The notes beneath the pieces are model-generated. The model saw nothing but the letters and a program-made list of their open reading frames with translations, did not search any database and was not told the DNA's origin. A program made the position numbers and the translations under genes. Below are positions 2,308 to 42,038 of a stretch of DNA of 64,000 bases, one piece after another. Position 1 is the stretch's first letter, and each line of letters starts with the position of its first letter. The stretch is taken from assembly GCF_044324785.1 (NCBI RefSeq), contig NZ_CP172127.1; one strand, given 5' to 3'. Source of the stretch: Escherichia coli. Its GTDB lineage: Bacteria; Pseudomonadota; Gammaproteobacteria; Enterobacterales; Enterobacteriaceae.

Positions 2308-2322
2308 TTGACGACTCCTGTC

Positions 2323-5641: not shown

Positions 5642-5721
5642 TTTTTATATATTCCCTGTGGCAAATATTGCTAAACAATGCCCGGGGATTAATTTTTATT
5701 ACTCACGGAAAGATTTAAATA

Positions 5722-6691: not shown

Positions 6692-7141
6692 ATGAAGAAA
6701 GCAACACTTGTGATTGGCGTTATTGGCGCGGACTGCCATGCAGTAGGCAATAAAGTTCTGGACCGAGTTTTTAGCAACCATGACTTCAGAGTTATTAATC
6801 TGGGCGTAATGGTCAGCCAGGACGAATATATTGATGCTGCCATTGAAACTGGTGCTGACGCGATTGTCGTCTCCTCTATCTATGGGCATGGCGATATCGA
6901 TTGTCTGGGCATGCGCGAACGCTGCATCGAGCGTGGGCTGGGTAACATCCTGCTCTATGTGGGCGGTAACCTGGTGGTCGGAAAACATGACTTCGCTGAC
7001 GTGGAAACCAAGTTCAAAGAGATGGGATTTGATCGCGTCTTTTCCCCAAGTCATGACTTAGAAGATGTTTGTCAGCTGATGGCCCACGATATCAACCAAC
7101 GTCATGACGTTGATACTCGCATTCTTGAAGAGGCAATCTGA
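6692..7141 (+). CDS. glmS: Glutamate mutase (methylaspartate mutase) S subunit, B12-binding
   Basis: [24 protein letters not shown]... carries the cobalamin-binding DxHxxG-type motif and resembles clostridial GlmS/MutS; start at the internal Met with an AGGA RBS rather than the ORF-track start at 6629. Symbol follows clostridial nomenclature, not glucosamine-6-P synthase. Confidence 0.9.
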
Positions 7142-8529
7142 TGCAAATCGTCTCTGTCGATATTGGATCGACGTGGACCAAAGCAGCCCTCTTCACCCGG
7201 GAGGGGGACGCGTTAACGTTGGTTAACCACGTTCTGACCCCAACCACCACCCATCATCTGGCGAAGGGGTTTTTCTCCAGCCTGGACCAGGTGTTAAACG
7301 TAGATAATGCCCTCCCCCTGTTAAACAGTGGTGAGGTTGCATTGAAGTATTCCTCCTCTGCCAAAGGTGGGCTGGCGGTTGCCGCAATGGGATTGGTGCC
7401 TTCTATCACCCTGGAAACCGCGAAAGTAACCGCTCACTCTGCGGGGGCTAAAATTGCGCAATATTACGCCTACAAGCTGAACCGCCGTGATATCCAGGCA
7501 CTGGAAGAAACGCAGCCCGATATTCTCTTGTTCACCGGCGGCACCGACGGCGGAGAAGAAAGCTACGGCCTGAATAACGCCCGTGTGCTGGCAGAATCCA
7601 AACTCGACTGCGCCATTATTTATGCCGGAAACCGGGATATTCAGGACGAGGTGCAGGAGATCCTAGGGCATAAAGACCTGACCATCGTCGACAATGTTCT
7701 GCCCGATCTTGACCATCCGAACCCTTTAGCTGCACGCCAGGCTATCTGCGACATATTCCTTAAACGCATCGTTAAAGGGAAAGGGCTGGATGTCGTTGTT
7801 GATAAAACAGGCGAAGAACCAATGCCGACACCGTGGACAGTCTTTGAACTGGTTAAGGCAATCAGTAATGTCGATCACAGCTGGAAAGAGTTCATGCTGA
7901 TCGACATGGGTGGCGCAACCACCGATGTCTATTCCGCCTGTGCCAACACGCTCTCGCCCGACACCGTTTTACACGGCGTACCGGAACCCTTCGTGAAACG
8001 GACGGTGGAAGGCGATCTGGGAATGCGCGTCTCGGCAATGGTGGTTGGTGAAAGTGCGAAAGAGTTAGTCAATGTGAATTTTGCTCAGCAACCCGCACAG
8101 CTGGACGCTTTTTATCATTACCTCCGTCATCTAGTCGCTCATCCCGACTACTTACCCGCGAATGCAGAAGAAAAATATTTCGATACCGTCCTGGCCGGAC
8201 TGTGTGTGGGTTATGCCACCGAAAGACATGCGGGCACCAAAAAAGAGGTCTGCACCTGCGTCGGCAATGTCGATTTACAGATGGGACGTGACCTGACAAC
8301 CGTGCGTAAAGTCGTCGGATCCGGCGGATGGCTCTCGCGTGCCAGTCAGTTCGATATGCATCACTGGTTGAAATACCGCGAGTTAAACGACGACGGTAAA
8401 CGCATTCTCTTACCGACCGAATTTGAATATTACCGCGATTCCCGGGGGCTATTACCACTGCTGGCAAACGTCGCCAGAGTCGATCCACTGGCCGCCGCGC
8501 GCACCAGTATTCAATGCTTAACCCTATAA
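7141..8529 (+). CDS. glmL: Glutamate mutase-associated GlmL/MutL-type protein (actin-like ATPase family)
   Basis: 462 aa ORF between the S and E subunit genes, as in clostridial glmS-glmL-glmE; N-terminus [18 protein letters not shown] typical of the sugar-kinase/actin fold; ATGA overlap with glmS. Confidence 0.8.
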   Translation: MQIVSVDIGSTWTKAALFTREGDALTLVNHVLTPTTTHHLAKGFFSSLDQVLNVDNALPLLNSGEVALKYSSSAKGGLAVAAMGLVPSITLETAKVTAHSAGAKIAQYYAYKLNRRDIQALEETQPDILLFTGGTDGGEESYGLNNARVLAESKLDCAIIYAGNRDIQDEVQEILGHKDLTIVDNVLPDLDHPNPLAARQAICDIFLKRIVKGKGLDVVVDKTGEEPMPTPWTVFELVKAISNVDHSWKEFMLIDMGGATTDVYSACANTLSPDTVLHGVPEPFVKRTVEGDLGMRVSAMVVGESAKELVNVNFAQQPAQLDAFYHYLRHLVAHPDYLPANAEEKYFDTVLAGLCVGYATERHAGTKKEVCTCVGNVDLQMGRDLTTVRKVVGSGGWLSRASQFDMHHWLKYRELNDDGKRILLPTEFEYYRDSRGLLPLLANVARVDPLAAARTSIQCLTL

Positions 8530-8547
8530 CAATTAAGGCTGCAATCA

Positions 8548-9993
8548 ATGGAACTTCGAAATAAGAAATTAACCCATGACGAATTCATGACCGAGCGGCA
8601 ACAGGTACTGAAAACCTGGGAAACCGGCAAGGATGTTGAAAACTTTGAAGATGGCGTTAAATACCAACAAACCATTCCTGAGCATAAACGCTTCTCTCTT
8701 GCGCTGTTGAAAGCAGACAAGGAAGGTAAAACCCTTAGCCAACCGCGCGCAGGTGTGGCGCTGATGGACGAACACATCGAACTACTGAAAACACTACAAG
8801 AAGAGTGCGATCTGCTGCCGAGCACCATCGATGCATATACCCGTCTGAATCGGTACGAAGAAGCGGCTGTAGGGATTAAAAAATCCATCGAAGCCGGAAC
8901 CTCTAAACTGAACGGTTTACCGGTAGTTAACCACGGCGTCGCAGCTTGCCGTCGCCTCACCGAAACTTTGCAAAAACCGCTACAGATCCGCCACGGCACG
9001 CCAGATGCGCGTCTGCTGGCTGAAATCTCGATGGCCAGCGGCTTTACCAGTTATGAAGGCGGCGGCATTTCCTACAATATTCCGTATGCCAAGCGCGTAA
9101 CGCTGGAAAAATCGATCCGCGACTGGCAGTACTGCGACCGTTTAATGGGGATGTATGAAGAACACGGGATCCGCATCAACCGCGAACCGTTTGGCCCACT
9201 AACGGGTACGCTGATCCCGCCGTTTATCTCGCACTCTATCGCGATAATCGAAGGATTACTGGCGCTGGAACAGGGTGTGAAATCTATCACCGTTGGTTAT
9301 GGACAGGTCGGCAGCCTGACGCAGGATGTTGCGGCGATCCAGTCTCTGCGTGAACTTGCACATGAATACTTTCAGAGCTATGGCTATACCGACTATGAAT
9401 TAAGTACCGTGTTTCACCAGTGGATGGGCGGCTTTCCGGAAGACGAATCGAAAGCGTTCGCTATTATCTCCTGGGGCGCAGCCGTCGCGGGGATGTCTGG
9501 TGCCACCAAAGTCATCACCAAAAGTCCGCACGAAGCCTGGGGTATCCCGACTGCCGCTGCCAACATTCAGGGGCTGAAAGCCTCCCGCCAGATGCTCAAC
9601 ATGGTCAATGAGCAGAAATTCCCGCCGTGCCCTGCGGTTGAACTGGAAATTGAACTGATTAAGAGCGAGGTTCGCGCGGTACTGAATAAAGTGTTCGAAC
9701 TGGGTAATGGTGATATTGCGCGCGGTACGGTGCTGGCATTTGAAGCGGGCGTACTGGATGTGCCGTTTGCGCCAGCCGCCTGCAACGCGGGCAAAATTCT
9801 TCCGGTCCGTGACAACACCGGCGCAATACGCGTACTGGAAGCCGGAGCCGTTCCATTGCCAAAAGATATTCTCGACCTCCACCACGATTACGTTGCGGAA
9901 CGCGCACGCTTTGAAGGACGCCAACCGACATTCCAGATGGTTGTAGATGACATCAATGCTGTATCCCACAGTAAATTAATAGGAAGACCATAA
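8548..9993 (+). CDS. glmE: Glutamate mutase (methylaspartate mutase) E subunit
   Basis: 481 aa ORF, size and position of the catalytic E subunit; adjacent to the S subunit and methylaspartate ammonia-lyase. Confidence 0.9.
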   Translation: MELRNKKLTHDEFMTERQQVLKTWETGKDVENFEDGVKYQQTIPEHKRFSLALLKADKEGKTLSQPRAGVALMDEHIELLKTLQEECDLLPSTIDAYTRLNRYEEAAVGIKKSIEAGTSKLNGLPVVNHGVAACRRLTETLQKPLQIRHGTPDARLLAEISMASGFTSYEGGGISYNIPYAKRVTLEKSIRDWQYCDRLMGMYEEHGIRINREPFGPLTGTLIPPFISHSIAIIEGLLALEQGVKSITVGYGQVGSLTQDVAAIQSLRELAHEYFQSYGYTDYELSTVFHQWMGGFPEDESKAFAIISWGAAVAGMSGATKVITKSPHEAWGIPTAAANIQGLKASRQMLNMVNEQKFPPCPAVELEIELIKSEVRAVLNKVFELGNGDIARGTVLAFEAGVLDVPFAPAACNAGKILPVRDNTGAIRVLEAGAVPLPKDILDLHHDYVAERARFEGRQPTFQMVVDDINAVSHSKLIGRP

Positions 9994-11234
9994 TGAAAAT
10001 AAAACAGGCTCTGTTCACCGCTGGCTACTCCTCATTCTATTTCGATGACCAGCAGGCGATAAAAAACGGAGCGGGTCATGACGGCTTTTTTTATACCGGG
10101 GAGCCAGTAACACAGGGGTTTAACGCCGTACGTCAGGCCGGGGAGTGCGTATCGGTACAGTTGATTCTGGAAAACGGCGCGGTCGCTGTAGGTGACTGTG
10201 CTGCCGTACAGTATTCCGGGGCAGGTGGTCGCGATCCACTGTTCCTCGCAGAGCACTTTATTCCGTTCCTCAACGACCATATTAAGCCATTACTGGTAGG
10301 CCGCGATGTAGATGCTTTCCTGCCGAATGCCCGTTTCTTCGACAAATTGCGTATTGACGGCAACTTGCTACATACCGCCGTACGCTACGGATTATCACAG
10401 GCGCTGCTTGATGCTACCGCGCTGGCAACCGGCCGTCTGAAAACTGAAGTGGTCTGTGATGAATGGCAGTTGCCACGCGTGGCGGAATCCATTCCATTAT
10501 TTGGTCAGAGCGGGGACGATCGATATATCGCCGTCGATAAGATGATCCTTAAGGGCATCGACGTGCTGCCCCATGCACTGATTAATAACGTCGAAGAGAA
10601 ACTGGGCTTTAAAGGTGAAAAACTGCGCGAATATGTCCGCTGGCTGTCGGATCGTATTCTGAGCAAGCGCACCAGCGCACGCTACCACCCTACCCTGCAC
10701 ATCGATGTATACGGCACTATCGGTCTGATCTTCGATATGGATCCGCTTCGCTGTGCGCAATACATCGCCAGCCTGGAAAAAGAAGCGCAAGGCCTGCCGC
10801 TCTACATTGAAGGGCCGGTCGATGCCGGTAACAAGACCGATCAAATTCGCCTGCTGACCGCGATTACCAAAGAGCTGACGCGCCTCGGTTCCGGCGTGAA
10901 AATTGTGGCCGATGAATGGTGTAACACCTACCAGGATATTGTTGATTTCACTGATGCCGCCAGTTGCCACATGGTGCAAATCAAAACCCCGGATCTGGGC
11001 AGTATTCACAACATCGTCGATGCAGTTCTTTATTGCAACAGCCACAGCATGGAAGCGTACCAGGGCGGCACCTGCAATGAAACTGATGTCAGTGCCCGCA
11101 CCTGTGTCCACGTCGCCCTTGCCGCTCGCCCCATGCGTATGCTGGTAAAGCCAGGGATGGGCTTTGACGAAGGCCTCGATATCGTCTTCAACGAAATGAA
11201 TCGTACTATCGCGCTGTTGCAGGCTAAGGATTAA
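9993..11234 (+). CDS. mal: 3-Methylaspartate ammonia-lyase (beta-methylaspartase)
   Basis: 413 aa enolase-superfamily-like ORF, 1-nt overlap with the glmE stop; size and context match methylaspartate ammonia-lyase. Confidence 0.88.
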   Translation: MKIKQALFTAGYSSFYFDDQQAIKNGAGHDGFFYTGEPVTQGFNAVRQAGECVSVQLILENGAVAVGDCAAVQYSGAGGRDPLFLAEHFIPFLNDHIKPLLVGRDVDAFLPNARFFDKLRIDGNLLHTAVRYGLSQALLDATALATGRLKTEVVCDEWQLPRVAESIPLFGQSGDDRYIAVDKMILKGIDVLPHALINNVEEKLGFKGEKLREYVRWLSDRILSKRTSARYHPTLHIDVYGTIGLIFDMDPLRCAQYIASLEKEAQGLPLYIEGPVDAGNKTDQIRLLTAITKELTRLGSGVKIVADEWCNTYQDIVDFTDAASCHMVQIKTPDLGSIHNIVDAVLYCNSHSMEAYQGGTCNETDVSARTCVHVALAARPMRMLVKPGMGFDEGLDIVFNEMNRTIALLQAKD

Positions 11235-11237
11235 CAA

Positions 11238-12608
11238 ATGGCTCGTTCTTTTAAAGTCTTATCGCCAACGGCAATCCTCGGGTATGGATTCCCGGAAGAG
11301 AGCTTCCGCAAAGCGATGGCAGAATCGCCCGATCTGATCGCCGTTGATGCAGGCTCTTCCGATCCAGGCCCCCACTACCTCGGGGCGGGCAAACCGTTTA
11401 CCGATCGCGCAGGGGTCAAGCGCGATCTGCGCTATATGATCACCGCAGGCGTTCAAAATAATATACCGGTGGTGATCGGAACGGCCGGCGGTTCTGGTGC
11501 CGCTCCACACCTGGAGTGGTGCCGAGAAATAATTCATGAGATTGCCCGGGAAGAGCACCTCTCGTTCTCGATGGCGCTGATCCCAGCAGACGTTGACAAA
11601 GCCATCGTCCACCAGGCGCTGGATAACGGCAAAATCACGGCGCTGGATTTTGTCCCGCCGTTAACCCACGACGCGATTGACGAAAGTACGTATATCGTCG
11701 CGCAAATGGGCATCGAACCCTTCCAGCGGGCGCTGAAAGAAGGCGCGCAAGTGGTGCTGGGCGGGCGCGCTTACGACCCGGCCTGCTTTGCTGCGCTACC
11801 GATCATGCAAGGCTTTGATGAAGGTCTGGCGCTGCATTGCGGGAAAATCCTTGAATGCGCGGCAATCGCCGCAACGCCCGGCTCAGGCTCTGACTGTGCG
11901 ATGGGCATCATTGATGACAACGGCTTTACGCTGAAGACATTTAATCCGAAGCGTAAATTTACCGAAACGTCAGCAGCTGCACACACACTGTATGAGAAAT
12001 CCGATCCCTACTTCCTGCCAGGACCTGGCGGCGTGTTGAACCTGAAAGGCTGCACATTTAAAGCGGTCAATGACGGCGAAGTGTACGTCAGCGGTTCTAA
12101 GCATGAAGAAACGCCGTATGCCCTGAAACTGGAAGGTGCGCGACGGGTGGGCTTCCGCTGTCTGACCATCGCCGGAACGCGCGACCCGATCATGATCGCC
12201 GGGATCGATAAAATCATCGATGAAGTCAAAACCAGCGTTTCGCGTAACCTGTCGCTCGACGATGACAGCATTCGCATCAATTTCCACCTGTACGGCAAAA
12301 ACGGGGTGATGGGCGACCATGAACCGATGCAAACTGCCGGGCATGAGCTGGGGATTGTCCTAGATGTAGTTGCACCGACCCAGGAAATTGCCAACAGCGT
12401 TTGCTCGCTGGTGCGCTCTACTATGCTGCACTACGGCTATGAAAACCGCATCGCTACCGCAGGCAACCTGGCGTTCCCGTTCTCCCCTTCTGATATCCAG
12501 GGCGGGCCAGTATACGAATTTTCCATATATCACCTGATTGAAGCCAACGACGCTCTGCGTTTTGATTTCCATATTGAACAGGTGACGCCAGAAGGAGTTC
12601 AGGCATGA
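11238..12608 (+). CDS. Uncharacterised protein, 456 aa (possibly AtuA/DUF1446-like)
   Basis: ORF 4 bp downstream of mal, same strand and GC content as the cluster; family assignment is from memory of architecture only. Confidence 0.7.
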   Translation: MARSFKVLSPTAILGYGFPEESFRKAMAESPDLIAVDAGSSDPGPHYLGAGKPFTDRAGVKRDLRYMITAGVQNNIPVVIGTAGGSGAAPHLEWCREIIHEIAREEHLSFSMALIPADVDKAIVHQALDNGKITALDFVPPLTHDAIDESTYIVAQMGIEPFQRALKEGAQVVLGGRAYDPACFAALPIMQGFDEGLALHCGKILECAAIAATPGSGSDCAMGIIDDNGFTLKTFNPKRKFTETSAAAHTLYEKSDPYFLPGPGGVLNLKGCTFKAVNDGEVYVSGSKHEETPYALKLEGARRVGFRCLTIAGTRDPIMIAGIDKIIDEVKTSVSRNLSLDDDSIRINFHLYGKNGVMGDHEPMQTAGHELGIVLDVVAPTQEIANSVCSLVRSTMLHYGYENRIATAGNLAFPFSPSDIQGGPVYEFSIYHLIEANDALRFDFHIEQVTPEGVQA

Positions 12609-12922
12609 AACAGTCAATTGTCTCACTGGCGCAAGTCATTCGTTCGAAAAATGCCGGACCTTACGAACTGGTTTTAGATATTTTATTTAAAACCAAAGAA
12701 AACTATGAGCGAGTTAAATCATCAGGGCAATTAACCCCAGAACTGATTGCGCGCTTATATCATGTTGAACCTGACTTTATTCACCGTATTGTCTGGTTTG
12801 ATCCTTCTAACGCAGTAAAAATCGTCATGCCACGAGATATTATCTCCGGGAATGTAGGTGACAATGATGTCTATGGTGCACAGCAACATGCACCTTTATT
12901 AAATATGAGTTTCGATTTGTAA
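12605..12922 (+). CDS. Uncharacterised small protein, 105 aa (possibly DUF4387-like partner)
   Basis: ORF overlapping the previous stop by 4 nt (translational coupling). Confidence 0.6.
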   Translation: MKQSIVSLAQVIRSKNAGPYELVLDILFKTKENYERVKSSGQLTPELIARLYHVEPDFIHRIVWFDPSNAVKIVMPRDIISGNVGDNDVYGAQQHAPLLNMSFDL

Positions 12923-13000
12923 AAATCCGAACATTTTTAGCCAACTGACATCCCGTCACTTATTGCAGTTCAACACTTCAGCTATTTGTAAGGTTGTAAT

Positions 13001-13040
13001 AGCAGGTAGATGCCTGAATCTCTATTCGGGCATCTACTTC
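13001..13040 (+). other. Stem-loop (GTAGATGCC...GGCATCTAC) between the enzyme genes and the symporter gene
   Basis: 9-bp perfect inverted repeat read directly, followed by a pyrimidine-rich stretch; possible internal terminator or attenuator. Confidence 0.3.
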
Positions 13041-13082
13041 TCCTGATTCTGATTTATCGCCGTGCACCTGATGGAGGAAAAA

Positions 13083-14363
13083 ATGAAGAAAATAAGTTTA
13101 ACCACGATGATTCTTTTGGCGCTGGTACTTGGAATGATTATCGGCGTAGTGCTCAATAACACTGCTTCACCGGAAACCGCAAAACTCTATGCGCAAGAAA
13201 TATCGATATTCACGACGATTTTCTTACGACTGATAAAAATGATTATCGCTCCGTTAGTGGTCTCTACCCTGGTGGTAGGTATAGCTAAAATGGGCGATGC
13301 CAAAGCCCTTGGTCGTATTTTTTCTAAAACACTCTTTTTATTTATTTGCGCCTCATTGCTGTCAATTGCCTTAGGCTTGATAACAGTAAATTTCTTCATG
13401 CCAGGCACAGGAATTAATTTTGTTGCACACGGAGCCGAAACCACCGGAGTGGTCGCGTCAGAACCCTTTACGCTAAAAGTATTTATTTCGCATGCTTTCC
13501 CCACCAGCATTGTCGATGCCATGGCGCACAATGAAATTTTGCAAATCGTGGTGTTCTCAATTTTCCTCGGCTGTAGCCTGACGGCGATTGGCGAGAAAGG
13601 CAGCGCCATCGTTCACGCCTTAGATTCGCTGGCACATGCCATGTTAAAGCTCACTGGCTACGTCATGCTCTTCGCTCCCCTGACCGTATTCGCTGCTATT
13701 TCAGCATTGATTGCTGAACGAGGACTGGCAGTTATGGTGAGCGCCGGGATCTTTATGGGTGAATTTTATTTCACCATGTTATTACTTTGGGTGCTGCTTA
13801 TCGGTCTGGCCATCGTTTATGTCGGCCCCTGCATCAGACGCCTGACCCGCGCCCTTTCGGAACCCGCCCTGCTGGCATTTACCACATCCAGTTCTGAAGC
13901 GGCTTTTCCGGGAACGCTTGAAAAACTGGAGCAATTTGGCGTTTCCCCCAAAATTGCCAGCTTTGTCTTACCCATTGGCTACTCATTTAATCTCGTTGGA
14001 TCAATGGCCTACTGCTCCTTCGCCACAGTTTTCATCGCCCAGGCCTGCAATATCCATTTATCCATCGGTGAGCAAATCACCATGCTGTTGATCCTGATGT
14101 TGACCTCGAAAGGAATGGCTGGCGTACCACGCGCCTCAATGGTGGTTATCGCCGCCACGCTCAACCAGTTCAATATTCCGGAAGCGGGGCTGATCTTGCT
14201 GATGGGCGTTGATCCGTTCCTTGATATGGGGCGTTCCGCGACAAACGTCATGAGCAACGCAATGGGCGCTGCGATGGTGAGTCGGTGGGAAGGCGAACAT
14301 TTCGGCGAGGGCTGTCGGGGTAAAGCATTAAAACCCAATGAATCGAACGTTGCTCTGCCCTGA
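13083..14363 (+). CDS. Dicarboxylate/amino acid:cation symporter (DAACS, GltP-like); likely glutamate uptake
   Basis: About 426 aa polytopic membrane protein; start placed at the ATG preceded by GGAGG (ORF track starts at 13062). Confidence 0.85.
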   Translation: MKKISLTTMILLALVLGMIIGVVLNNTASPETAKLYAQEISIFTTIFLRLIKMIIAPLVVSTLVVGIAKMGDAKALGRIFSKTLFLFICASLLSIALGLITVNFFMPGTGINFVAHGAETTGVVASEPFTLKVFISHAFPTSIVDAMAHNEILQIVVFSIFLGCSLTAIGEKGSAIVHALDSLAHAMLKLTGYVMLFAPLTVFAAISALIAERGLAVMVSAGIFMGEFYFTMLLLWVLLIGLAIVYVGPCIRRLTRALSEPALLAFTTSSSEAAFPGTLEKLEQFGVSPKIASFVLPIGYSFNLVGSMAYCSFATVFIAQACNIHLSIGEQITMLLILMLTSKGMAGVPRASMVVIAATLNQFNIPEAGLILLMGVDPFLDMGRSATNVMSNAMGAAMVSRWEGEHFGEGCRGKALKPNESNVALP

Positions 14364-14470
14364 GGGGGATCTTAAGCAATCAGAAGCCAATGACTACGCA
14401 TTTTTATAAGCCGGATCATGAAGTTAGACGGCAATTAAGTAACACTAACGTTTAAGGTGAAAAGTGAAAT

Positions 14471-16123
14471 ATGTCCAAACCATTTATCTGGCAAGAACCG
14501 TTTCTACAAAATAAAGACGGTACAGAATATACATTAATTAGCGATCAACATATTACAGTAACGGAATTAGACGGCGAAGAAGTGATAAAAATCGCTCCTG
14601 AAGCATTAACGCTGCTTGCCCGGCAGGCATTTTATGAAGCCTCTTTTTTCTTACGTTCCGCTCATTTGCAACAGGTCGCCAGCATTCTTAACGATCCGCA
14701 GGCCAGTAGTAATGATAAATACGTTGCGTTGCAGTTATTACGTAATGCTGAAGTCTCAGCAAAAGGGGTATTACCCAACTGTCAGGATACCGGCACCGCA
14801 ACTATTGTTGCCAGTAAAGGGCAACAGATATGGACCGGAGGTAACGACGCCGAAGCCTTAAGCAAAGGCATTTACACCACTTTTCAGGAAAATAATCTGC
14901 GCTTTTCACAAAATGCGCCACTGGATATGTATACCGAAGTCAATACGCAAACCAATCTACCGGCGCAGATTGATATCAGCGCCGTCGCTGGTGATGAGTA
15001 CCATTTTCTCTGTATTAATAAAGGGGGCGGCTCTGCCAATAAAGCCGCGCTTTATCAGGAAACAAAATCCCTATTGCAACCAGAAAAACTGACCGCATTT
15101 TTAATCGAAAAAATGAAATCGCTGGGCACCGCTGCCTGCCCGCCTTACCACATCGCCTTTGTCGTCGGAGGGCTTTCAGCCGATCAAACCTTAAAAGTTG
15201 CCAAGCTGGCCTCAACGAAATATTACGACAATTTGCCCACCAGCGGAAACGCGCAGGGACAAGCATTCCGTGATATTGAGTTGGAAAAAGCGTTGCTCAA
15301 CGCCAGTCAGCAATTTGGTATTGGTGCGCAATTTGGGGGTAAATATTTCGCTCATGATATTCGCGTCATTCGTCTGCCGCGTCACGGTGGCTCTTGCCCG
15401 ATAGCTATGGCGCTCTCCTGTTCTGCCGATCGCAATATCAAAGCAAAAATTAACAAGCACGGTATCTGGCTGGAAAAACTCGTACACAATCCGGGGCAAT
15501 ATATTCCAGCCTCACTGCGGGAAGAAAATCACCCGCAACATGTACAGCTGGATCTAAACCGTCCGTTGCGTGACGTGATGCAGGATCTCGCCAGATTACC
15601 GGTAGGCACCCGCGTGTCGTTAAATGGTCCCATCGTAGTGGCGCGCGATATCGCCCACGCCAAAATAAAAGCGCGGCTGGATAGCGGCGAACCGATGCCG
15701 GATTACCTGAAGCATCATATTGTCTATTACGCTGGCCCGGCGAAAACACCTGAGAACATGGCCTGCGGTTCACTGGGTCCAACCACGGGTGGACGAATGG
15801 ACGGTTATGTCGATACCTTCCAGGCGGTTGGCGGCAGTCTGGTGATGTTATCGAAAGGTAACCGCAGCCAGCAGGTCACCGATGCCTGTCACAAACATGG
15901 CGGCTTCAATCTGGGAAGTATTGGCGGTGCAGCAGCGTTACTGGCGCAAGAATATGTCAAAAGTCTGCGTTGCCTGGAATACCCGGAGCTGGGTATGGAA
16001 GCGGTGTGGATGATGGAAGTGGAAAATCTGCCCGCATTCATCCTGGTAGATGATAAAGGCAATAATTTCTTTAGTCAGTTTGAGCAGCAACACCGCTGCG
16101 CCAGTTGCCCTGCGGGACATTAA
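14471..16123 (+). CDS. Class I (Fe-S) fumarate hydratase paralogue; candidate mesaconase
   Basis: 550 aa ORF co-linear with the FumA/FumB family ([11 protein letters not shown]..., GSCP and CxxC motifs); located inside the methylaspartate cluster. Confidence 0.9.
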
Positions 16124-16132
16124 GGAAAATGA

Positions 16133-16735
16133 ATGGAAGCGCGAATTTCAACTGAACGGCATGTGCAGCGCCAGCAGAAATTGAAGGAACAGGTCGATAC
16201 GCGCGTCGCGGCGGCGATAGAGAAAAAAGGGATCTTGATTGTTTTCACCGGCAACGGCAAAGGGAAATCCACTGCCGCGTTTGGTACTGTGACGCGCGCG
16301 GTGGGTCATGGCAAAACGGTGGGGGTTGCGCAGTACATCAAGGGGCAATGGGACAACGGCGAATACAACCTTCTCCAGCCGCTGGGGGTTGAGTTTCATA
16401 TTATGGGAACCGGTTTTACCTGGGAGACACAGAACCGGCAAGCGGATATCGACGCGGCGAAAGAGGTCTGGTCGGAAAGCAAACGGATGCTGGCTGACAA
16501 GCGTTACGACTTAGTGGTGCTTGATGAGCTGACCTATATGCTGGCTTACCATTATCTGGACACCGAAGAAGTGATCGCTTCTCTGCAAAACCGCCCGGCA
16601 CAACAAAGTGTCATTGTCACCGGACGCGGTTGCCACAGTCAGATATTAAAAATGGCGGATACGGTCAGCGAAATCCGCCCCGTCAAACATGCTTTTGATA
16701 ACGGCATTCAGGCGCAGCCGGGTATCGACTGGTAA
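16133..16735 (+). CDS. Corrinoid (cob(I)alamin) adenosyltransferase, BtuR/CobA family
   Basis: 200 aa ORF with P-loop VFTGNGKGKSTAAFG; strongly resembles BtuR; would supply adenosylcobalamin to glutamate mutase. Confidence 0.9.
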   Translation: MEARISTERHVQRQQKLKEQVDTRVAAAIEKKGILIVFTGNGKGKSTAAFGTVTRAVGHGKTVGVAQYIKGQWDNGEYNLLQPLGVEFHIMGTGFTWETQNRQADIDAAKEVWSESKRMLADKRYDLVVLDELTYMLAYHYLDTEEVIASLQNRPAQQSVIVTGRGCHSQILKMADTVSEIRPVKHAFDNGIQAQPGIDW

Positions 16736-16738
16736 TAA

Positions 16739-16765
16739 CTGCGCCTGGCATCCCGCCAGGCGCAG
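16739..16765. terminator. Bidirectional stem-loop between convergent adenosyltransferase and LysR genes
   Basis: CTGCGCCTGGCATCCCGCCAGGCGCAG palindrome read directly. Confidence 0.5.
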
Positions 16766-16768
16766 GTT

Positions 16769-17674
16769 TTACATCTCCTGCGGTACGACCGATTTCGCCA
16801 GCAACCATTCACGAAATTGCTGCAAGTGCGGCGAGTCAGACTTCTCTTCCTGCCACGTCATAATAAAACGATTACCGGTACGAATAGGCACATCACAGGG
16901 AATCACCATATCGCCACTATCCAAATCATGTTGAATAGCGAACCGTGGTAACAGCGCCACGCCGAGATTAGAGCGCACGGCGGCAATCAGCATTGAAAGC
17001 AAATCGAAACGTGGTCCGTTGTTGACCAGCGGACTGCTAACGCCAGATAAGGCAAACCACTCTTCCCAGCCAGTAATACGGGTACTTTGATGCAGAAGTG
17101 GTAACTCTGTAAGCAGTTCTGCCACTGACAGTTTTTGATCGGACATTGCAAGCAAACTGCCGCTGCATACCGGCAAAATCTCTTCTTCAAAGAGATATTC
17201 TACTTCCGCCCAGGGCGCGCAAAAATTTTCGCGCATAATGACAGCATCGTACTCCCGATTAAGAAAATCGCCGTTATTAGCTAAAGAGTGAATATTAACA
17301 ATAATATCGGGATGTAACTTTGTGAATTCATGTAAATTTGGGATTAACCAGTGGGTACTAAACGTAGGATTCACGGCAAGTTCAATAACCTGAACCGTAG
17401 GCTGCCAGGTCATAATGGTATTGGTATCGCGTTCCAGCTTATTTAATGTTTCTTTTACTATCCCCAGGTAATACTTCCCTGCATCATTAAGAAAAATACG
17501 TTTTTTAGAGTGTGAAAATAACGGAGTATGTAAAAATTCCTCCAGCGCACTCACTTGTCTGAATACTGCACTTTGGGTTAACGCTAACTCCTCTGCCGCT
17601 CTGGTATAACTTTCATGACGTGCGACGACCTCAAAAGTCACCAGCAGTTCCGTTTTAGGTATTTTCCCTCGCAT
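16769..17674 (-). CDS. LysR-family transcriptional regulator
   Basis: 301 aa ORF with N-terminal HTH (...YTRAAEELALTQSAVFRQVSALE...) and LTTR-type C-terminal domain. Confidence 0.9.
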   Translation of the reverse strand: MRGKIPKTELLVTFEVVARHESYTRAAEELALTQSAVFRQVSALEEFLHTPLFSHSKKRIFLNDAGKYYLGIVKETLNKLERDTNTIMTWQPTVQVIELAVNPTFSTHWLIPNLHEFTKLHPDIIVNIHSLANNGDFLNREYDAVIMRENFCAPWAEVEYLFEEEILPVCSGSLLAMSDQKLSVAELLTELPLLHQSTRITGWEEWFALSGVSSPLVNNGPRFDLLSMLIAAVRSNLGVALLPRFAIQHDLDSGDMVIPCDVPIRTGNRFIMTWQEEKSDSPHLQQFREWLLAKSVVPQEM

Positions 17675-17943
17675 AATGCCGTCCCTTAAAAATAGTTTAA
17701 ACCATCAAAAATACATTACTTATTACGAAGTAATGGTAACCAAAGCAGCAATAAATAATTTATAAGAATCATGATTGACATTTATAACCCAGTAAGCCTG
17801 GCGTGACAAATATCTTAATCAGATAATAATAATCCGAAAAGCACAGCGCCTTTCGAATTATCCGGAATCACATTAAGTGAAAATTATTAAATTGATATCA
17901 TTTATCATATCTGTGGATATTATGATAAACAATCAACAAAGAT

Positions 17944-18187
17944 TTTATTTTTGATTTATAGCATATCCCTCTAAGAATTTTTGCGATGCTGCAATATCCG
18001 GGGTAAAGACCCGATCCTGGCTGACAAATGGCACGACTTGACGATAAGCGGTGAACATCGCTTTTGTTGATTTACTTAACGCTACGGTCAAACGCTGGGA
18101 AGCCAGTGCATCAGGTAACGATTCGAAATTCGCCGTCGTTCTTATTCGTGGCTTGCGGTCGGTTGCGGCAATCCACAGTGGCTGTGG
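17944..18187 (-). pseudogene. Possible 3' gene remnant (about 80 codons open, no convincing start)
   Basis: Manual minus-strand translation: ...PLWIAATDRKPRIRTTANFESLPDALASQRLTVALSKSTKAMFTAYRQVVPFVSQDRVFTPDIAASQKFLEGYAINQK*; only an internal ATG; sits at the island/sucD boundary. Confidence 0.25.
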
Positions 18188-18236
18188 TCATGCAGTCAAG
18201 CCAGCGGTCAGATTTCGACCGTGGTTAACGTTTAAG

Positions 18237-18339
18237 GCATAAAAAAGGCCATCATACGATGGCCAACCATGTCGAAACCGACAGCCCTTCGCCATTCCTG
18301 TAGAGGGAAGCGGCGAGGGCTATTTCTTATTACAGATAT
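18237..18339 (-). ncRNA. sdhX: sucD 3'UTR-derived sRNA SdhX (RybD) with intrinsic terminator
   Basis: Directly after the sucD stop on the minus strand; ends in hairpin GGCCATCGTATGATGGCC plus T-tract (18241-18264); identity with SdhX is from memory of the K-12 3'UTR. Confidence 0.4.
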
Positions 18340-19209
18340 TTATTTCAGAACAGTTTTCAGTGCTTCACCGATATCCGCCAGGCTGCGAACGGTTTTCACG
18401 CCTGCGGCTTCCAGAGCAGCGAATTTCTCATCCGCAGTCCCTTTACCACCGGCAATGATGGCACCTGCGTGACCCATACGTTTGCCTTTCGGCGCAGTCA
18501 CACCAGCGATGTAACCCACAACTGGCTTGGTAACGTGCTCTTTGATGTACGCAGCCGCTTCTTCTTCAGCGCTACCGCCGATCTCACCGATCATCACGAT
18601 CGCTTCGGTCTGCGGATCTTTTTCGAACATTTCGAGGATGTCGATAAAGTTAGAGCCAGGGATCGGGTCGCCGCCGATACCAACACAGGTCGACTGACCG
18701 AAACCGTAATCCGTGGTCTGTTTAACCGCTTCATAGGTCAGTGTACCGGAACGGGAAACGATACCCACTTTACCCGGTTTGTGAATGTGACCAGGCTGGA
18801 TACCGATTTTGCATTCACCCGGAGTGATAACGCCTGGGCAGTTCGGGCCGATCATGCGAACGCCCGCTTCATCCAGTTTCACCTTCACGGTCAGCATATC
18901 CAGCGTCGGGATGCCTTCAGTGATGGTGATAATCAGTTTGATGCCTGCATCGATAGCTTCCAGAATGGAGTCTTTGCAGAACGGTGCTGGTACGTAGATA
19001 ACAGAAGCGGTAGCGCCAGTAGCAGCAACAGCTTCACGCACGGTGTTGAACACCGGCAGGCCGAGGTGGGTAGTACCGCCTTTACCTGGGGTTACGCCGC
19101 CAACCATTTTGGTGCCGTATGCAATGGCCTGTTCAGAGTGGAAAGTCCCCTGGCTACCGGTAAAGCCCTGGCAGATAACCTTGGTGTTTTTATCAATTAA
19201 AATGGACAT
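18340..19209 (-). CDS. sucD: Succinyl-CoA synthetase alpha subunit
   Basis: 289 aa ORF ([33 protein letters not shown]...). Confidence 0.97.
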
Positions 19210-20375
19210 TATTTCCCCTCCACTGCGGCAACAACCTGCTGAGCTGCATCCGTCAGACCTTTTGCTGCAATAATATTCAGGCCGCTGTCAGCCAGTTTCT
19301 TCGCGCCGAGTTCGGCGTTGTTACCTTCCAGACGTACCACGACCGGTACGTTAACACCCACTTCCGCTACCGCGCCGATGATACCGTCAGCGATCAGGTC
19401 GCAACGAACGATACCGCCGAAAATGTTAACCAGAACGGCTTTCACTTTGTCGTCAGAGAGGATGATTTTGAACGCTTCGGTTACACGTTCTTTGGTTGCG
19501 CCGCCGCCAACGTCCAGGAAGTTAGCTGGTTCGCCGCCGTGCAGTTTAACGATGTCCATGGTGCCCATCGCCAGACCTGCGCCGTTAACCATACAACCGA
19601 TGTTACCGTCCAGCGCAACGTAGTTCAGTTCCCACTGTGCAGCCTGTGCTTCACGCGGATCTTCCTGCGACTGGTCACGCATTTCGCGCAGATCAGGCTG
19701 GCGGAACAGTGCGTTGCCGTCAGCGCCCAGTTTGCCGTCGAGGCAAATCAGATCGCCCTGTTTGGTGATGACCAGCGGGTTGATTTCGATCAGCGCCAGG
19801 TCGCGCTCCAGGAAAATGGTCGCCAGGCCCATGAAGATTTTGGTGAACTGCTGAACCAGTTTACCTTCCAGACCCAGTTTGAACGCCAGCTCGCGTCCCT
19901 GATATGGCATCGGGCCAGTCAGCGGATCAAGCGCAACTTTGTGGATCAGGTGCGGAGTTTCTTCCGCCACTTTTTCGATTTCCACGCCGCCTTCGGTGGA
20001 GGCCATAAAGACCACACGACGGGAACTACGGTCTACAACGGCACCGAGATACAGCTCTTTAGCGATATCGGTCGCTGCTTCAACCAGAATCTGGTTAACC
20101 GGTTGGCCATTGGCATCTGTTTGATACGTTACCAGACGCTTGCCCAGCCAGTTTTCTGCAAAAGCACGGATGTCTTCTTTGCTGTTTACAACTTTCACAC
20201 CGCCCGCTTTACCGCGGCCACCAGCGTGAACCTGACATTTCACTACCCACGGACCGGCACCGATTTTTGAAGCGGCTTCTTCTGCTTCGCGCGGAGTAGT
20301 ACAGGCATAACCCACCGGTGCTGGTAAGCCATAGCGGGCAAAAAGTTGTTTTGCCTGATATTCATGTAAGTTCAT
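19209..20375 (-). CDS. sucC: Succinyl-CoA synthetase beta subunit
   Basis: 388 aa ORF ([18 protein letters not shown]...), 1-nt overlap with the sucD start. Confidence 0.97.
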
Positions 20376-20468
20376 GTGTTCTGTCCATCCTTCAGTAATC
20401 GTTATCTTTTAAACCGTAGACCGACACCCTATCCACGTCGGTCTACAGTGCAGGTGAAGCTTAAACTA

Positions 20469-21686
20469 CTAAACGTCCAGCAGCAGACGCGTCGGATCTT
20501 CCAGCAACTCTTTGATCGTTACCAGGAAGCCCACGGATTCGCGACCATCGATCAGACGGTGATCGTAGGACAGCGCCAGGTACATCATCGGCAGGATCTC
20601 AACCTGGCCATTCACTGCCATCGGACGATCTTTGATAGCGTGCATACCCAGAATTGCGCTCTGCGGCGGGTTGATGATCGGCGTAGACATCAGGGAACCG
20701 AACACACCACCGTTGGTGATGGTGAAGTTACCACCGGTCAGATCTTCAACCGTCAGCTTGCCGTCACGGCCTTTGACTGCCAGCTCTTTGATTTTCTTCT
20801 CGATGTCTGCCATGCCGAGGGTATCGACATCACGCAGTACCGGCGTCACCAGGCCGCGCGGCGTAGAAACCGCCATGCTGACGTCGAAATAGTTGTGGTA
20901 AACCACATCATCGCCGTCGATAGACGCGTTCACTTCCGGGTAACGTTTCAGGGCTTCAACCACCGCTTTCACGTAGAAGGACATAAAGCCCAGACGAATA
21001 CCGTGACGTTTTTCAAACGCTTCACCGTACTGCTTACGCAGATCCATAATCGGCTTCATGTTGACTTCGTTGAACGTGGTCAGCATGGCGGTGGAGTTTT
21101 TCGCTTCCAGCAGACGCTCTGCCACACGCTTACGCAGGCGAGTCATCGGCACACGTTTTTCGCTACGTGCAGCCAGAGCCGGTTGCGCCGCCGGAGCCGC
21201 AGCTGCCGGAGCAGACTCTTTCGCCGGAGCTTTCGCCAGATGTTTTTCCACATCTTCACGAGTCAGACGACCACCCACACCGGTACCTTTAATGGCGCTG
21301 GCGTCGAGGTTATGTTCAGCCAGCAGGCGACGGATCGCCGGGCTTAACGCATCGTTGTTTTGCTCTTCCAGAGACGCCTGCTGGCGTTGCGCCGGAGTGG
21401 ACGCTTTCTCTTCAGATTTGGCGCTGGTTTCTTTACCCGCGCTGTTGCCTTCACGCAGGCGACCAAGGATCTGACGAGACGTTACGGTTGTACCTTCATC
21501 TTCCAGAACCGCATCCAGAATGCCGTCTGCTGATGCCGGTACTTCCAGTACCACTTTGTCAGTTTCGATTTCTACCAGCACTTCATCACGTACGACTGCG
21601 TCGCCGGGTTTTTTATGCCAGGTTGCGACGGTGGCATCGGCTACGGATTCAGGCAGGTCAGGGACCAGAATATCTACGCTACTCAT
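20469..21686 (-). CDS. sucB: 2-Oxoglutarate dehydrogenase E2 (dihydrolipoyl succinyltransferase)
   Basis: 405 aa ORF with lipoyl domain and Ala/Pro-rich linker. Confidence 0.97.
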
Positions 21687-21700
21687 TGTGTATCCTTTAT

Positions 21701-24502
21701 TTATTCGACGTTCAGCGCGTCATTAACCAGATCTTGTTGCTGTTTCTGGTGAACGGACATATACCCTACCGCCGGAGAGGCGGAGGCCGGGCGGCCTGCA
21801 TAACGCAGAGAAGCCCCAAACGGAATCACTTCACGGAAATGATGCTGGCTGCAGTACCATGCGCCCTGGTTGAGCGGTTCTTCCTGGCACCAGACAAAAT
21901 CCTTGACGTGAGCAAACTGCTGCAACACTTCCTGCATCGCTTTATGCGGGAACGGGTAGAGTTGCTCGATACGCACAATGGCGACATCGTGTTGATTGTT
22001 CTTACGGCGTTGTTCCAACAGGTCGTAATAAACCTTACCAGAACACATCACTACGCGCTTCACGCCCTTCGGATCAAGCTCGTCGATTTCACCGATGGCT
22101 GGCAGGAAGGTGCCGTTCGCCAGTTCTTCGAGGCTGGAAACCGCCAGCGGATGACGCAGCAGGGATTTCGGCGACATCACGACCAGCGGACGACGCATCC
22201 CGCGCAGCGCCTGACGACGCAGCATGTGGTAAACCTGTGCCGGGGTAGACGGTACGCACACCTGCATGTTTTGCTCAGCGCAAAGTTGCAGATAACGTTC
22301 CAGACGCGCGGAGGAGTGCTCCGGCCCCTGCCCTTCGTAACCGTGCGGCAGCAACATCACCAGACCACACATCCGGCCCCATTTCTGTTCGCCAGAGGAG
22401 ATGAACTGGTCGATAACCACCTGAGCACCGTTGGCGAAGTCACCGAATTGCGCTTCCCAGATGGTCAGGGTGCGTGGTTCTGCGGTGGCATAACCGTATT
22501 CAAACGCCAGCACTGCTTCTTCAGACAGTACGGAGTCCCAGACACGGAACGCGCCCTGGCCGTTATGGATGTGTTGCAGCGGCGTGTAAGTGGAACCGTT
22601 AGACTGGTTGTGGATCACCGCGTGGCGGTGGAAGAAGGTACCGCGACCGGAGTCTTCACCCGACAGGCGAACCGGAATGCCTTCGTCAACCAGCGTGGCG
22701 TAAGCGAGGTTTTCCGCGCCGCCCCAGTCGAACAGTTTCTCACCGGCTGCCATTGCCTGGCGATCGCCATAAATCTTGGCAACGCGAGACTGCATTTCAA
22801 CTGCTTCCGGCACCGTGCTGATGCGTTTAGCCAGTTCCTGCAGGCGCTTCATCTCAACTTTGTTCGGGTACTCTTCGTCCCATTCGTGGTTGAGGTACGG
22901 TGACCAGGTGAAAGAGTGCATGTTCATCGGACGCCACTCTGCTACCACGCAATCGCCAGCATCCAGCGCATCGCGGTACAGGTTAACCATCTCGGTGGCA
23001 TCTTCCAGCGTCGCGACTTTTTCCTGCTCCAGCTTGTCAGCGTAGATTTTGCGCGGCGTCGGATGTTTTTTGATTTTCTGATACATCAGCGGCTGGGTTG
23101 CGCTCGGCTCGTCGGCTTCGTTATGGCCATGACGGCGGTAGCACACCAGGTCGATGAAGACATCACGTTTAAAGGTGTTACGGAAATCGAGCGCCAGACG
23201 GGTCACAAAGGCAACGGCTTCCGGATCGTCCGCGTTAACGTGGAAAATCGGGGCCTGAACCATCTTACCGATATCAGTACAGTACGGCGTAGAACGGGCA
23301 TCCAGCGGATTAGAGGTGGTGAAGCCAACCTGGTTGTTGATAACGATACGTACCGTACCGCCAACTTCATAACCACGCGCTTTCGACATGTTCAGAGTTT
23401 CCTGAACCACGCCCTGCCCGGTCACTGCGGCGTCACCATGAATGGTGATTGGCAGCACTTTGTTGCTGCTCGGCTCATCAAGTCTGTCCAGACGGGCACG
23501 AACAGAACCGATAACTACCGGGCTTACAATCTCAAGGTGAGACGGGTTAAACGCCAGCGCCAGGTGCACCAGGCCGCCATCGGTCTGGAAGTCAGACGAG
23601 AAGCCCATATGGTATTTCACGTCGCCTGTGCCGAGGTGTTCTTTATGTTTACCGGCAAACTCGTCGAACAAGTCTTGCGGTTTTTTACCCAGCACGTTCA
23701 CCAACACGTTCAGACGACCACGGTGCGCCATTCCGAGAACCACTTCGCGGGTGCCGCTGTTGCCAGCGTGGCGGATCATCTCTTTAAGCATCGGGATTAA
23801 CGCGTCACCGCCTTCCAGCGAGAAGCGTTTTGCGCCAGGGAATTTTGCGCCGAGGTAACGTTCAAGGCCTTCAGCGGCGGTCAGTTCGCTTAAGAAGCGT
23901 TTTTTCTCTTCGCTATTGAAAGTCGCGCGACCAGACTCGATACGCTGTTGGATCCAGCGTTTTTCTTCGGTGCTGGTGATGTGCATATACTCGGCACCAA
24001 TCGGGCCGCAGTAGGTTTGCTTGAGTGCTTCCAGCAGTTCGCCGAGTTTCATGGTTTCTTTGCCGCTGGCAAATGAACCGACGTTGAAGGTCTCCTGGAA
24101 GTCTGCTTCGGTCAGATCGTGGAAAGACGGATCCAGATCGGCCACTTTATCTTGCTGCCACAGTCCCAGCGGATCGAGATTCGCATGCTGGTGACCACGG
24201 AAGCGGTATGCGTTAATGAGCTGCAGGACTTTAACCTGCTTCACATTGGTGTCAGGGTCGGAGATCGTTGAAGAGTAACGTGAAGCGTCTTTCGCCAGGC
24301 GGCGGAAATATTCACGCGTTTGAGAGTGGAATTGATCCGGTTTGACTCCCGTACCAGGTAACTGCTGGAACGTCGAACGCCAGTTAGCGTCAACCGAGTC
24401 AGGATCGGTTAAGAAGTCTTCATAGAGCTGTTCTATCCAGCTCTGGTTTGCGCCAGAGAGGTAAGAAGAGTCCAACCAGGCTTTCAAAGCGCTGTTCTGC
24501 AT
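21701..24502 (-). CDS. sucA: 2-Oxoglutarate dehydrogenase E1 component
   Basis: 933 aa ORF. Confidence 0.97.
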
Positions 24503-24702
24503 CGTGATCCCTTAAGCATCTTTTTTATGCTTACTTCGCCGTGGATACTACCACGCACAGTGATGTGCGTGCCGGGGTTCACTTGCGAGCTCTTGTCTAC
24601 GTAGTGGCTCGCGAAGGAACCTTTAAAAACTGTCTTAGTGTCAGGGGCAGTTTTTAAAGATTTCCTGAATAGCCGGGGGATTTCCCCGGCATCAACATTT
24701 AA
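24503..24702 (-). other. sdhB-sucA intergenic region with nested palindromes
   Basis: Inverted repeats read directly: CACGCACAGTGATGTGCGTG, GGTTCACTTGCGAGC/GCTCGCGAAGGAACC, TTTAAAAACTG/CAGTTTTTAAA, CCGGGGGATTTCCCCGG. Confidence 0.3.
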
Positions 24703-25419: not shown

Positions 25420-25434
25420 TTTCCTGTCTCCGCA

Positions 25435-40373: not shown

Positions 40374-42038
<1,665 letters not shown>

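Follow-up and report, generated by a model that had tools for sequence, protein, structure and literature searches.

We found that two adjacent genes in the window (a 64 000-nt stretch of the Escherichia coli contig NZ_CP172127.1), fumD and cobO, belong to an accessory island in which a class I fumarase paralogue would act as a mesaconase and a CobA/BtuR-type adenosyltransferase would serve the same methylaspartate pathway. We consider this explanation as a whole highly probable. Its basis is the identities of the genes, their conserved catalytic residues and their synteny, together with the kinetics published for the 98%-identical enzyme of E. coli O157:H7. The initial annotation had arrived at essentially this interpretation, which our analysis supports; it re-derives a published result, as both the fumD mesaconase and the presence of CobA in the cluster have been known since 2015 (PMC4682846). 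The features discussed in the following are:

4310–18238, no strand assigned: the island, approximate extent of ~14 kb, from K-12 junction alignments
6692–7141, plus strand: glmS, B12-binding subunit S of methylaspartate (glutamate) mutase (NF002612 and TIGR01501 equivalogs, far above cut-off)
7141–8529, plus strand: glmL, mutase accessory/reactivating protein (NF040745 equivalog, 510.6 bits, cut-off 475; TIGR01319)
8548–9993, plus strand: glmE, methylaspartate mutase subunit E (TIGR01503 equivalog, 865 bits, cut-off 390)
9993–11234, plus strand: mal, 3-methylaspartate ammonia-lyase (TIGR01502 equivalog, 545 bits, cut-off 286)
11238–12608, plus strand: cmlA, AtuA/DUF1446 family, citramalate lyase subunit CmlA as named in the PDB (9ERQ/9EVF chain A, full length, 973 bits)
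12605–12922, plus strand: cmlB, DUF4387, citramalate lyase subunit CmlB as named in the PDB (9ERQ chain B, 193.5 bits)
13083–14363, plus strand: predicted dicarboxylate/amino acid:cation symporter of the SDF family, GltP/DctA-related but under both cut-offs (the longest ORF begins at 13062 with GTG)
14471–16123, plus strand: fumD, ORF of 550 aa with ATG start, class I ([4Fe-4S]) fumarate hydratase paralogue, predicted promiscuous mesaconase/fumarase
16133–16735, plus strand: cobO, ORF of 200 aa with ATG start, cobO/cobA-type ATP:co(I)rrinoid adenosyltransferase, second BtuR paralogue
16739–16765, no strand assigned: G+C-rich hairpin from the terminator scan, 11-bp stem with nine G-C pairs, between the convergent cobO and LysR genes
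16769–17674, minus strand: LysR-type regulator, GcvA-like, under every curated cut-off, convergent with cobO

The 550-residue protein is a class I fumarase of the FumD clade

The initial annotation had placed a 550-residue fumarase with a BtuR-like adenosyltransferase immediately downstream at 14471–16735, and both ORFs are present as listed above, with family matches far beyond chance (E = 0 and 1e-88). The larger protein aligns end to end with FumA and FumB of K-12 (68% and 67% identity), with one 1-residue indel near the N terminus and a difference of two to three residues at the C terminus, which bears out the earlier description of the three proteins as co-linear. Against the NCBIfam equivalog NF011921 it scored 1273.9 bits (cut-off 1060) with residues 1–550 covered, whereas it stayed under the cut-offs of the FumA model NF011919 (924 bits, cut-off 1105) and the FumB model NF011920 (917 bits, cut-off 1094). 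The C-terminal domain model TIGR00723 was passed with 181.1 bits (cut-off 145.15); the N-terminal model TIGR00722 fell slightly short with 98.9 bits (cut-off 100.65). An N-terminal (Fumerase/TtdA-like) and a C-terminal (Fumerase_C/TtdB-like) domain are fused in a single chain of ~550 aa, and homologues carry both PF05681 and PF05683.

As a structural reference for class I we used the fumarase of Leishmania major (LmFH, PDB 5L2R), a eukaryotic enzyme with an N-terminal extension, which aligned to FumD residues 18–536 with 59% identity (E = 3.8e-209). The cysteine ligands of the [4Fe-4S] cluster, LmFH Cys133/252/346, are conserved as C104, C223 and C317. The catalytic and substrate-binding residues Gln134, Asp135, Arg173, Gly216, His334, Arg421, Thr467, Thr468, Arg471 and Lys491 of LmFH are all kept, as Q105, D106, R144, G187, H305, R392, T438, T439, R442 and K462, while two alanines of LmFH are replaced in FumD, Ala490 by Ser and Ala469 by Gly. 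Judged by these comparisons of sequence, the protein belongs over its full length to the class I (Fe-S) fumarate hydratases and is a member of the FumD clade, apart from FumA and FumB. The two K-12 enzymes share with FumD the single-chain N+C architecture of ~550 aa, the three Cys ligands and the same catalytic Thr/Asp/His/Arg set, but they belong to the core genome, whereas FumD is encoded in an accessory island. The initial designation as the third class I paralogue cannot be derived from the window alone, which contains neither fumA nor fumB; it is in line with the published account, where fumD is the third class I fumarase gene of O157:H7 and its fourth fumarase gene overall (PMC4682846).

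Comparison with the characterized enzyme of E. coli O157:H7

The gene was named fumD by Kronen and Berg (2015), who purified the O157:H7 enzyme ECs0757 (PMC4682846). The Sakai locus tags ECs0751, ECs0753 and ECs0754 are given in the literature for sucA, sucC and sucD, and from ECs0754 (sucD) the tags run to ECs0768 (cydA), so that ECs0757 falls at the position of fumD. It is the same gene as that in the window and occupies the same place in the chromosome, within the same cluster. The window protein shares 537 of its 550 residues (98%) with its O157:H7 counterpart at the fumD position, and none of the 13 differences affects a catalytic or cluster residue. Four of these substitutions, E261A, E338V, A355P and A453V, appear to be derived in the lineage of the window; the position of E338V is invariant in 63 other FumD orthologues as well as in FumA and FumB.

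For the O157:H7 enzyme, the reported kcat/Km is 2x10^6 with mesaconate versus 7.5x10^5 with fumarate, and its oxygen-labile activity was restored by Fe2+ plus thiol (PMC4682846). From this 98%-identical enzyme we infer that the window allele would hydrate mesaconate as well. FumA and FumB have the opposite substrate preference to FumD as measured from O157:H7; they also hydrate mesaconate, with efficiencies that are 4% and 19%, respectively, of those on fumarate (PMC4682846). The premise of the initial annotation that class I fumarases act on mesaconate is thus correct; since FumA and FumB do so too, FumD is not strictly required for this step. The proposal of a specialised mesaconase can be kept in part: mesaconate is indeed favoured by the O157:H7 enzyme, but the specialisation is relative, with a preference of only 2–3-fold and a high fumarase Vmax of 671 U/mg (PMC4682846).

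Such a high retained activity on fumarate, the location of fumD directly beside the sdh-suc TCA operon and the conservation of every fumarase catalytic residue would also suit a redundant third class I fumarase for TCA or anaerobic fumarate metabolism, whose place in the island is incidental. However, the order of the two efficiencies is the reverse of that in FumA and FumB, fumD always accompanies glmSLE-mal, related fumarase genes of Hafnia and Yersinia adjoin glm/mal and cobO, and FumD forms a separate NCBIfam equivalog. We regard simple redundancy as very improbable and retain the mesaconase reading. The clostridial mesaconase MesAB catalyzes the same reaction and is likewise clustered with glutamate mutase and methylaspartase, but it is a heterodimer of separate alpha and beta subunits that branches elsewhere in the class I tree, and several independent origins of mesaconases have been concluded (PMC4682846).

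Candidate positions for substrate preference

A strict scan for specificity-determining positions between the FumD and FumA/B groups, split by identity, returned zero matches. A relaxed scan gave clade-specific substitutions of FumD relative to FumA/FumB at W7, L66, S200, V243, A312, G379, I417, C432, S461, N480 and M514, which are to be read as candidates only; S461 adjoins the substrate-binding K462. The split by identity classed the Hafnia and Yersinia fumarases as FumA/B-like, an assignment we rejected because these genes adjoin glm, mal and cobO.

Two further positions were considered as a possible ‘methyl pocket’: N103, just before Cys104, which is Thr/Ser in FumA, FumB and LmFH, and G440, beside the catalytic Thr438/439, which is Ala in the same three enzymes. 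This idea was rejected as well. Class I fumarases of Providencia that have no glm/mal/cobO neighbours also carry N and G, and one LysR–fumarase–cobO module has a fumarase with T and A, so that no clean link exists between these residues and the genomic context. Five metagenome proteins (P0074, P0076, P0082, P0084 and P0085) combine a part with FumA-type residues and a part with FumD-type residues and are probable assembly chimeras.

The island carries a complete set of methylaspartate pathway genes

The island replaces mngR-mngA-mngB of K-12 and is bordered by the region upstream of cydA on one side and by the sucD/sdhX terminator on the other. Both fumD and cobO fall within this non-K-12 segment, as had been assumed initially. 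The genes glmS, glmL, glmE and mal are located 3–8 kb upstream of fumD on the same strand, in the order known from O157:H7. The set for the methylaspartate pathway is complete, comprising mutase subunits S and E, the reactivase, methylaspartase, mesaconase and a citramalate lyase, the latter by its PDB name and a preprint. The lyase assignment is based on near-identity to the 9ERQ chains, the name given by the depositors and the one preprint, in which CmlAB was employed as citramalate lyase (bioRxiv 10.64898/2026.01.16.699985); a literature search returned no primary paper on CmlAB. Clostridial clusters, in contrast, contain a citrate-lyase-like CitDEF citramalate lyase (PMC4682846), to which CmlAB is unrelated. 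GltP, FumD, CobA (cob(I)alamin adenosyltransferase) and an LTTR are placed within the cluster in the legend of Fig. 5 of PMC4682846, GltP being the label given there to the SDF symporter. Two low-GC hypothetical proteins at the edge of the island had no NCBIfam, PADLOC or PDB match.

For the island genes compared with O157:H7 we determined dN/dS values of 0–0.065 in 9 of 10 cases. fumD had the highest value of the island, 0.21 in this single pairwise comparison, with 14 non-synonymous and 19 synonymous changes versus 14 and 114 in the other island genes (Fisher p = 1e-4), while cobO showed no amino-acid change. The significantly higher non-synonymous share of fumD is one of three observations that would fit active proteins encoded by an island that is silent or decaying in E. 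coli and leaves the fumD–cobO pair without a current role. The second is that laboratory work on E. coli has never detected expression of the cluster, strain ATCC 700728 showing no expression, no methylaspartase activity and no glutamate-dependent growth under any condition tried (PMC4682846), and the third that a literature search with the Sakai locus tags of the island genes returned nothing beyond the FumD paper. However, all island ORFs are intact in the window, and 1117 of the 5426 complete E. coli genomes (~21%) retain the whole 14-kb island with 95–99% identity; for O157:H7 the cluster was reported in 90.6% of strains (PMC4682846). The low dN/dS of nine genes and the unchanged CobO protein indicate purifying selection, and the exact fumD allele of the window was found on 207 E. 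coli contigs. A silent or decaying island seems unlikely to us, and a pathway that E. coli may use physiologically remains the preferred reading.

The island adenosyltransferase

cobO starts 9 nt downstream of fumD and has its own AAGGA Shine–Dalgarno sequence. Its product passed the cobA model TIGR00708 (246.6 bits, cut-off 167.75) and NF004637 (295.6 bits, cut-off 185), is 67% identical to K-12 BtuR over 196 residues and matches S. enterica CobA (1G5R) over residues 6–200 (E = 2.5e-88). The initial annotation of a second BtuR-like adenosyltransferase immediately downstream is therefore accurate, and the copy is a ‘second’ one because nearly all complete E. coli genomes (5422 of 5426) have btuR itself. 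In a five-sequence alignment the P-loop (G40-NGKGKST-47) and F95/W97 were invariant, the latter being what we take to be the equivalents of the Phe91/Trp93 pair that displaces the lower ligand in S. enterica CobA. Compared with S. enterica CobA and E. coli BtuR, CobO thus matches over the full length and keeps both motifs, but it has four extra N-terminal residues and lies directly after fumD in an accessory island, not at the yciK-btuR locus. On alignment and profile evidence CobO belongs to the ATP:co(I)rrinoid adenosyltransferases of the CobA/BtuR type; a literature search returned no assay of the island copy. The further suggestion that the island makes its own adenosylcobalamin is overstated. 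Because E. coli is, to our knowledge, devoid of de novo corrin synthesis, the step predicted for this gene is only the final adenosylation of an imported corrinoid.

CobO might be a generic BtuR duplicate with no link to glutamate mutase, the housekeeping BtuR supplying adenosylcobalamin (AdoCbl) equally well. The degree of identity to BtuR and the shared catalytic motifs agree with this, and so does the version of the island in Pseudescherichia vulneris, which is present without cobO; together with the near-universal btuR this means that a dedicated role of CobO is not necessary. Against a generic duplicate, cobO is conserved directly after the cluster fumarase in E. coli, Hafnia, Yersinia and one further genome, the LysR–fumarase–cobO trio recurring in the latter three beside glm/mal and cob genes, and the CobO proteins of the window and O157:H7 are 100% identical although synonymous divergence amounts to 3%. 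Moreover, other AdoCbl pathways bring their own adenosyltransferases, PduO and EutT. The logic is alike, an AdoCbl-dependent catabolic cluster having its own adenosyltransferase beside the housekeeping CobA, but PduO and EutT are generally known to belong to families unrelated to CobA, whereas the extra copy of the island is itself of the CobA type. A generic duplicate is a serious possibility, though we lean against it and favour an adenosyltransferase that would act for the mutase. A more far-reaching model would treat LysR–fumarase–cobO as a conserved unit with CobO dedicated to glutamate mutase (e.g. through a direct hand-off of AdoCbl to GlmS in which BtuR could not replace it) and FumD as the fastest-evolving enzyme of the island, being tuned or relaxed between fumarate and mesaconate with S461-type residues as determinants; this we rate as quite unlikely.

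Orthologous LysR regulators (65–71% identity) lie beside the fumarase gene in Yersinia intermedia and P. vulneris. A promoter scan found fewer sigma-70-like sites than in shuffled sequence and none in the 107-nt gap between gltP and fumD, so the operon structure is one that we infer, in which fumD and cobO are probably co-transcribed. The hairpin at 16739–16765, by its match to the consensus, probably acts as a two-way terminator. Rfam searches of positions 3800–18400 (E <= 1) revealed no cobalamin riboswitch and no other RNA family.

Proposed pathway and implications

In the proposed pathway, GlmS and GlmE, together with the GlmL reactivase and adenosylcobalamin, would convert glutamate to 3-methylaspartate, from which Mal would release mesaconate and NH3. 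FumD, as the oxygen-sensitive third enzyme, would hydrate mesaconate to (S)-citramalate somewhat better than fumarate to malate, and CmlAB, the AtuA/DUF4387 pair, would split citramalate into pyruvate and acetate. CobO would turn imported cob(I)alamin into adenosylcobalamin for glutamate mutase. Since it is probably co-transcribed and would supply the cofactor of the mutase, activation of the cofactor would be co-expressed with its only client in the island.

For fumD and cobO themselves these findings add little that is new, as fumD was named and its product purified and kinetically characterized in 2015, and the cluster figure of that study already included the adenosyltransferase. That the AtuA/DUF4387 pair has apparently been identified as CmlAB, which is the result of others and not a discovery from the window, closes the gap left by the 2015 paper, namely the fate of citramalate, and thereby makes the physiological question directly testable. 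With the island present in about a fifth of the complete E. coli genomes, this bears on the B12-dependent use of glutamate, converted to pyruvate and acetate, in the gut.

The fumD-cobO locus encodes a class I fumarase and an adenosyltransferase

Both open reading frames (ORFs) that the initial annotation had placed at this locus were found exactly where it put them, in the following arrangement:

14471-16123, plus strand: fumD ORF of 550 aa, ATG start
16133-16735, plus strand: cobO ORF of 200 aa, ATG start
16739-16765: G+C-rich hairpin with an 11-bp stem between cobO and the convergent LysR gene (terminator scan, sequence)
16769-17674: LysR gene, convergent with cobO

The gap between fumD and cobO measures 9 nt, and the junction sequence contains an AAGGA Shine-Dalgarno motif ahead of the cobO start. 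Its sequence marks the 550-aa product as a class I fumarate hydratase of full length. It scored 1273.9 bits against the NCBIfam equivalog NF011921 (cut-off 1060), whereas its scores for the FumA model (924 bits, cut-off 1105) and for NF011920 (917 bits, cut-off 1094) were too low to pass. The proposed co-linearity with FumA and FumB held, with identities of 68% and 67%, respectively, to the K-12 proteins, and residues 18-536 align to the Leishmania major fumarate hydratase (LmFH, PDB 5L2R) at 59% identity (E = 3.8e-209). All three [4Fe-4S] cluster cysteines (C104, C223 and C317) are kept, as are all listed LmFH catalytic and substrate-binding residues (Q105, D106, R144, G187, H305, R392, T438, T439, R442 and K462). 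The protein encoded at the same position in O157:H7 is identical at 537 of 550 residues, and none of the 13 differences falls on an active-site residue.

FumD was named by Kronen and Berg (2015, PMC4682846), who purified the O157:H7 enzyme ECs0757. The Sakai tag order (sucD = ECs0754, cydA = ECs0768) places ECs0757 three genes past sucD, at the position of fumD. The published kcat/Km values are 2x10^6 M-1 s-1 for mesaconate and 7.5x10^5 M-1 s-1 for fumarate, whereas the mesaconate efficiency relative to fumarate is only 4% for FumA and only 19% for FumB; a published attempt to detect expression of the cluster failed (PMC4682846). As the 550-aa protein corresponds to this enzyme, whose kinetics favour mesaconate, its earlier reading as a mesaconase is supported, and our finding of fumD and the cluster is a rediscovery of published work.

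Specificity residues and selection on fumD

Candidate determinants of substrate specificity are the residues found only in the E. coli-type FumD clade, for example S461 beside K462. G440 and N103, neighbours of catalytic residues, were rejected as mesaconase markers because they did not track genomic context. In the metagenome class I fumarases P0074, P0076, P0082, P0084 and P0085, FumA-type and FumD-type residues occur in different parts of the same chain; paralogues have probably been joined during assembly, and such chimeric sequences can mislead analyses of clade-specific residues.

Selection was evaluated gene by gene in a single pairwise comparison of the window with O157:H7. For fumD (window 14471-16123 vs 13172-14824 of the O157:H7 locus) we observed 14 non-synonymous and 19 synonymous differences (dN/dS 0.21), while nine other island genes had dN/dS values of 0-0.065 and a pooled 14 non-synonymous to 114 synonymous differences (Fisher p = 1e-4 vs fumD). 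The fumD changes arose in both lineages; E338V in the window allele alters a site at which 63 other FumD orthologues, FumA and FumB do not vary. The higher dN/dS may reflect relaxed constraint, which is possible because FumA and FumB are also able to hydrate mesaconate.

The adenosyltransferase and relatives of the island

From its matches, the 200-aa protein is classed as a CobA/BtuR-type ATP:co(I)rrinoid adenosyltransferase: it lies above the cut-offs of TIGR00708 and NF004637, matches S. enterica CobA (1G5R) with E = 2.5e-88 and has both the P-loop and the F95/W97 Phe/Trp pair intact. No residue separates it from the O157:H7 copy (100% identity), and it shares 67% identity with K-12 BtuR. 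As 5422 of 5426 complete E. coli genomes have btuR, the island gene is a second copy, as the initial annotation had stated. E. coli is not known to build the corrin ring itself, so this enzyme could only activate imported cobalamin. The Fig. 5 legend of PMC4682846 lists GltP, FumD, CobA (cob(I)alamin adenosyltransferase) and LTTR; our literature search found no published assay of the island adenosyltransferase.

A LysR-fumarase-cobO trio adjoins glm/mal and/or cobalamin genes in three loci:

L008 (Hafnia), 8915-12255
L009 (Yersinia intermedia), 8676-12259
L011 (one further genome), 6554-10205

Orthologous LysR proteins (65-71% identity) occur with the fumarase gene in Y. intermedia and in Pseudescherichia vulneris. 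In P. vulneris, too, the island lies between cydA and sucD, with fumD and LysR present but cobO absent. The suggested pairing of fumarase and adenosyltransferase is thus conserved but not obligatory.

Chromosomal setting and spread

The window is E. coli chromosome, with the following landmarks:

1168-3894, minus strand: cydBA
18340-27946, minus strand: sucDCBA-sdhBADC
28639: gltA

Junction alignments revealed that ~4310-18238 is absent from K-12 and takes the place of mngR-mngA-mngB; the right end (~18238) abuts the sucD terminator/SdhX sRNA region, and the sequence is K-12-identical from there onward. At the left edge, in a stretch of 35-37% G+C, lie two ORFs, 4697-5641 (314 aa) and 5722-6144 (140 aa), which the O157:H7 annotation gives as hypothetical only; sequence searches of NCBIfam, PADLOC and the PDB matched neither. 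The 2.6-kb fumD-cobO stretch was found in 1121 and the entire 14-kb island in 1117 of the 5426 complete genomes, in both cases at 95-99% identity and nearly always on the chromosome. Even in the suc/sdh region (19000-29000) the closest of these genomes is ~99.1-99.2% identical at most, so the source lineage has no close representative among complete RefSeq genomes. Since 207 E. coli contigs on record encode exactly this FumD protein, the lineage is nevertheless a natural one. Elsewhere, within 42000-52000, G+C jumps from 0.37 (44-46 kb) to 0.62 (48-50 kb) at an Rhs element (RHS core protein, ISAs1-family transposase ybfD) adjoining kdpA and phrB, and a like arrangement spans at least 80% of this region in only 457 genomes.

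The island and the fate of citramalate

GlmS, GlmL, GlmE and methylaspartate ammonia-lyase gave equivalog-level matches, and the SDF-family transporter fell under both the GltP and the DctA cut-offs. Two genes 3' of mal match, over their full length, chains of 9ERQ/9EVF:

11238-12608: AtuA/DUF1446 gene, matching the chain named citramalate lyase CmlA (973 bits)
12605-12922: DUF4387 gene, matching the chain named citramalate lyase CmlB (193 bits)

In RefSeq and NCBIfam these genes are still labelled 'AtuA family' and 'DUF4387' or have no family; the role of both proteins was unknown in 2015 (PMC4682846). A 2026 preprint (bioRxiv 10.64898/2026.01.16.699985) uses Raoultella planticola cmlAB, a gift of the Berg laboratory, for the direct conversion of citramalate to pyruvate and acetate. 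The CmlA/CmlB pair appears to be the citramalate-cleaving step missing from the 2015 FumD paper (PMC4682846). Together, the PDB matches and the use of cmlAB in the preprint mean that the island seems to carry the genes for every step that takes glutamate to pyruvate, acetate and ammonia; if so, the fate of citramalate, left open in 2015 (PMC4682846), would be answered.
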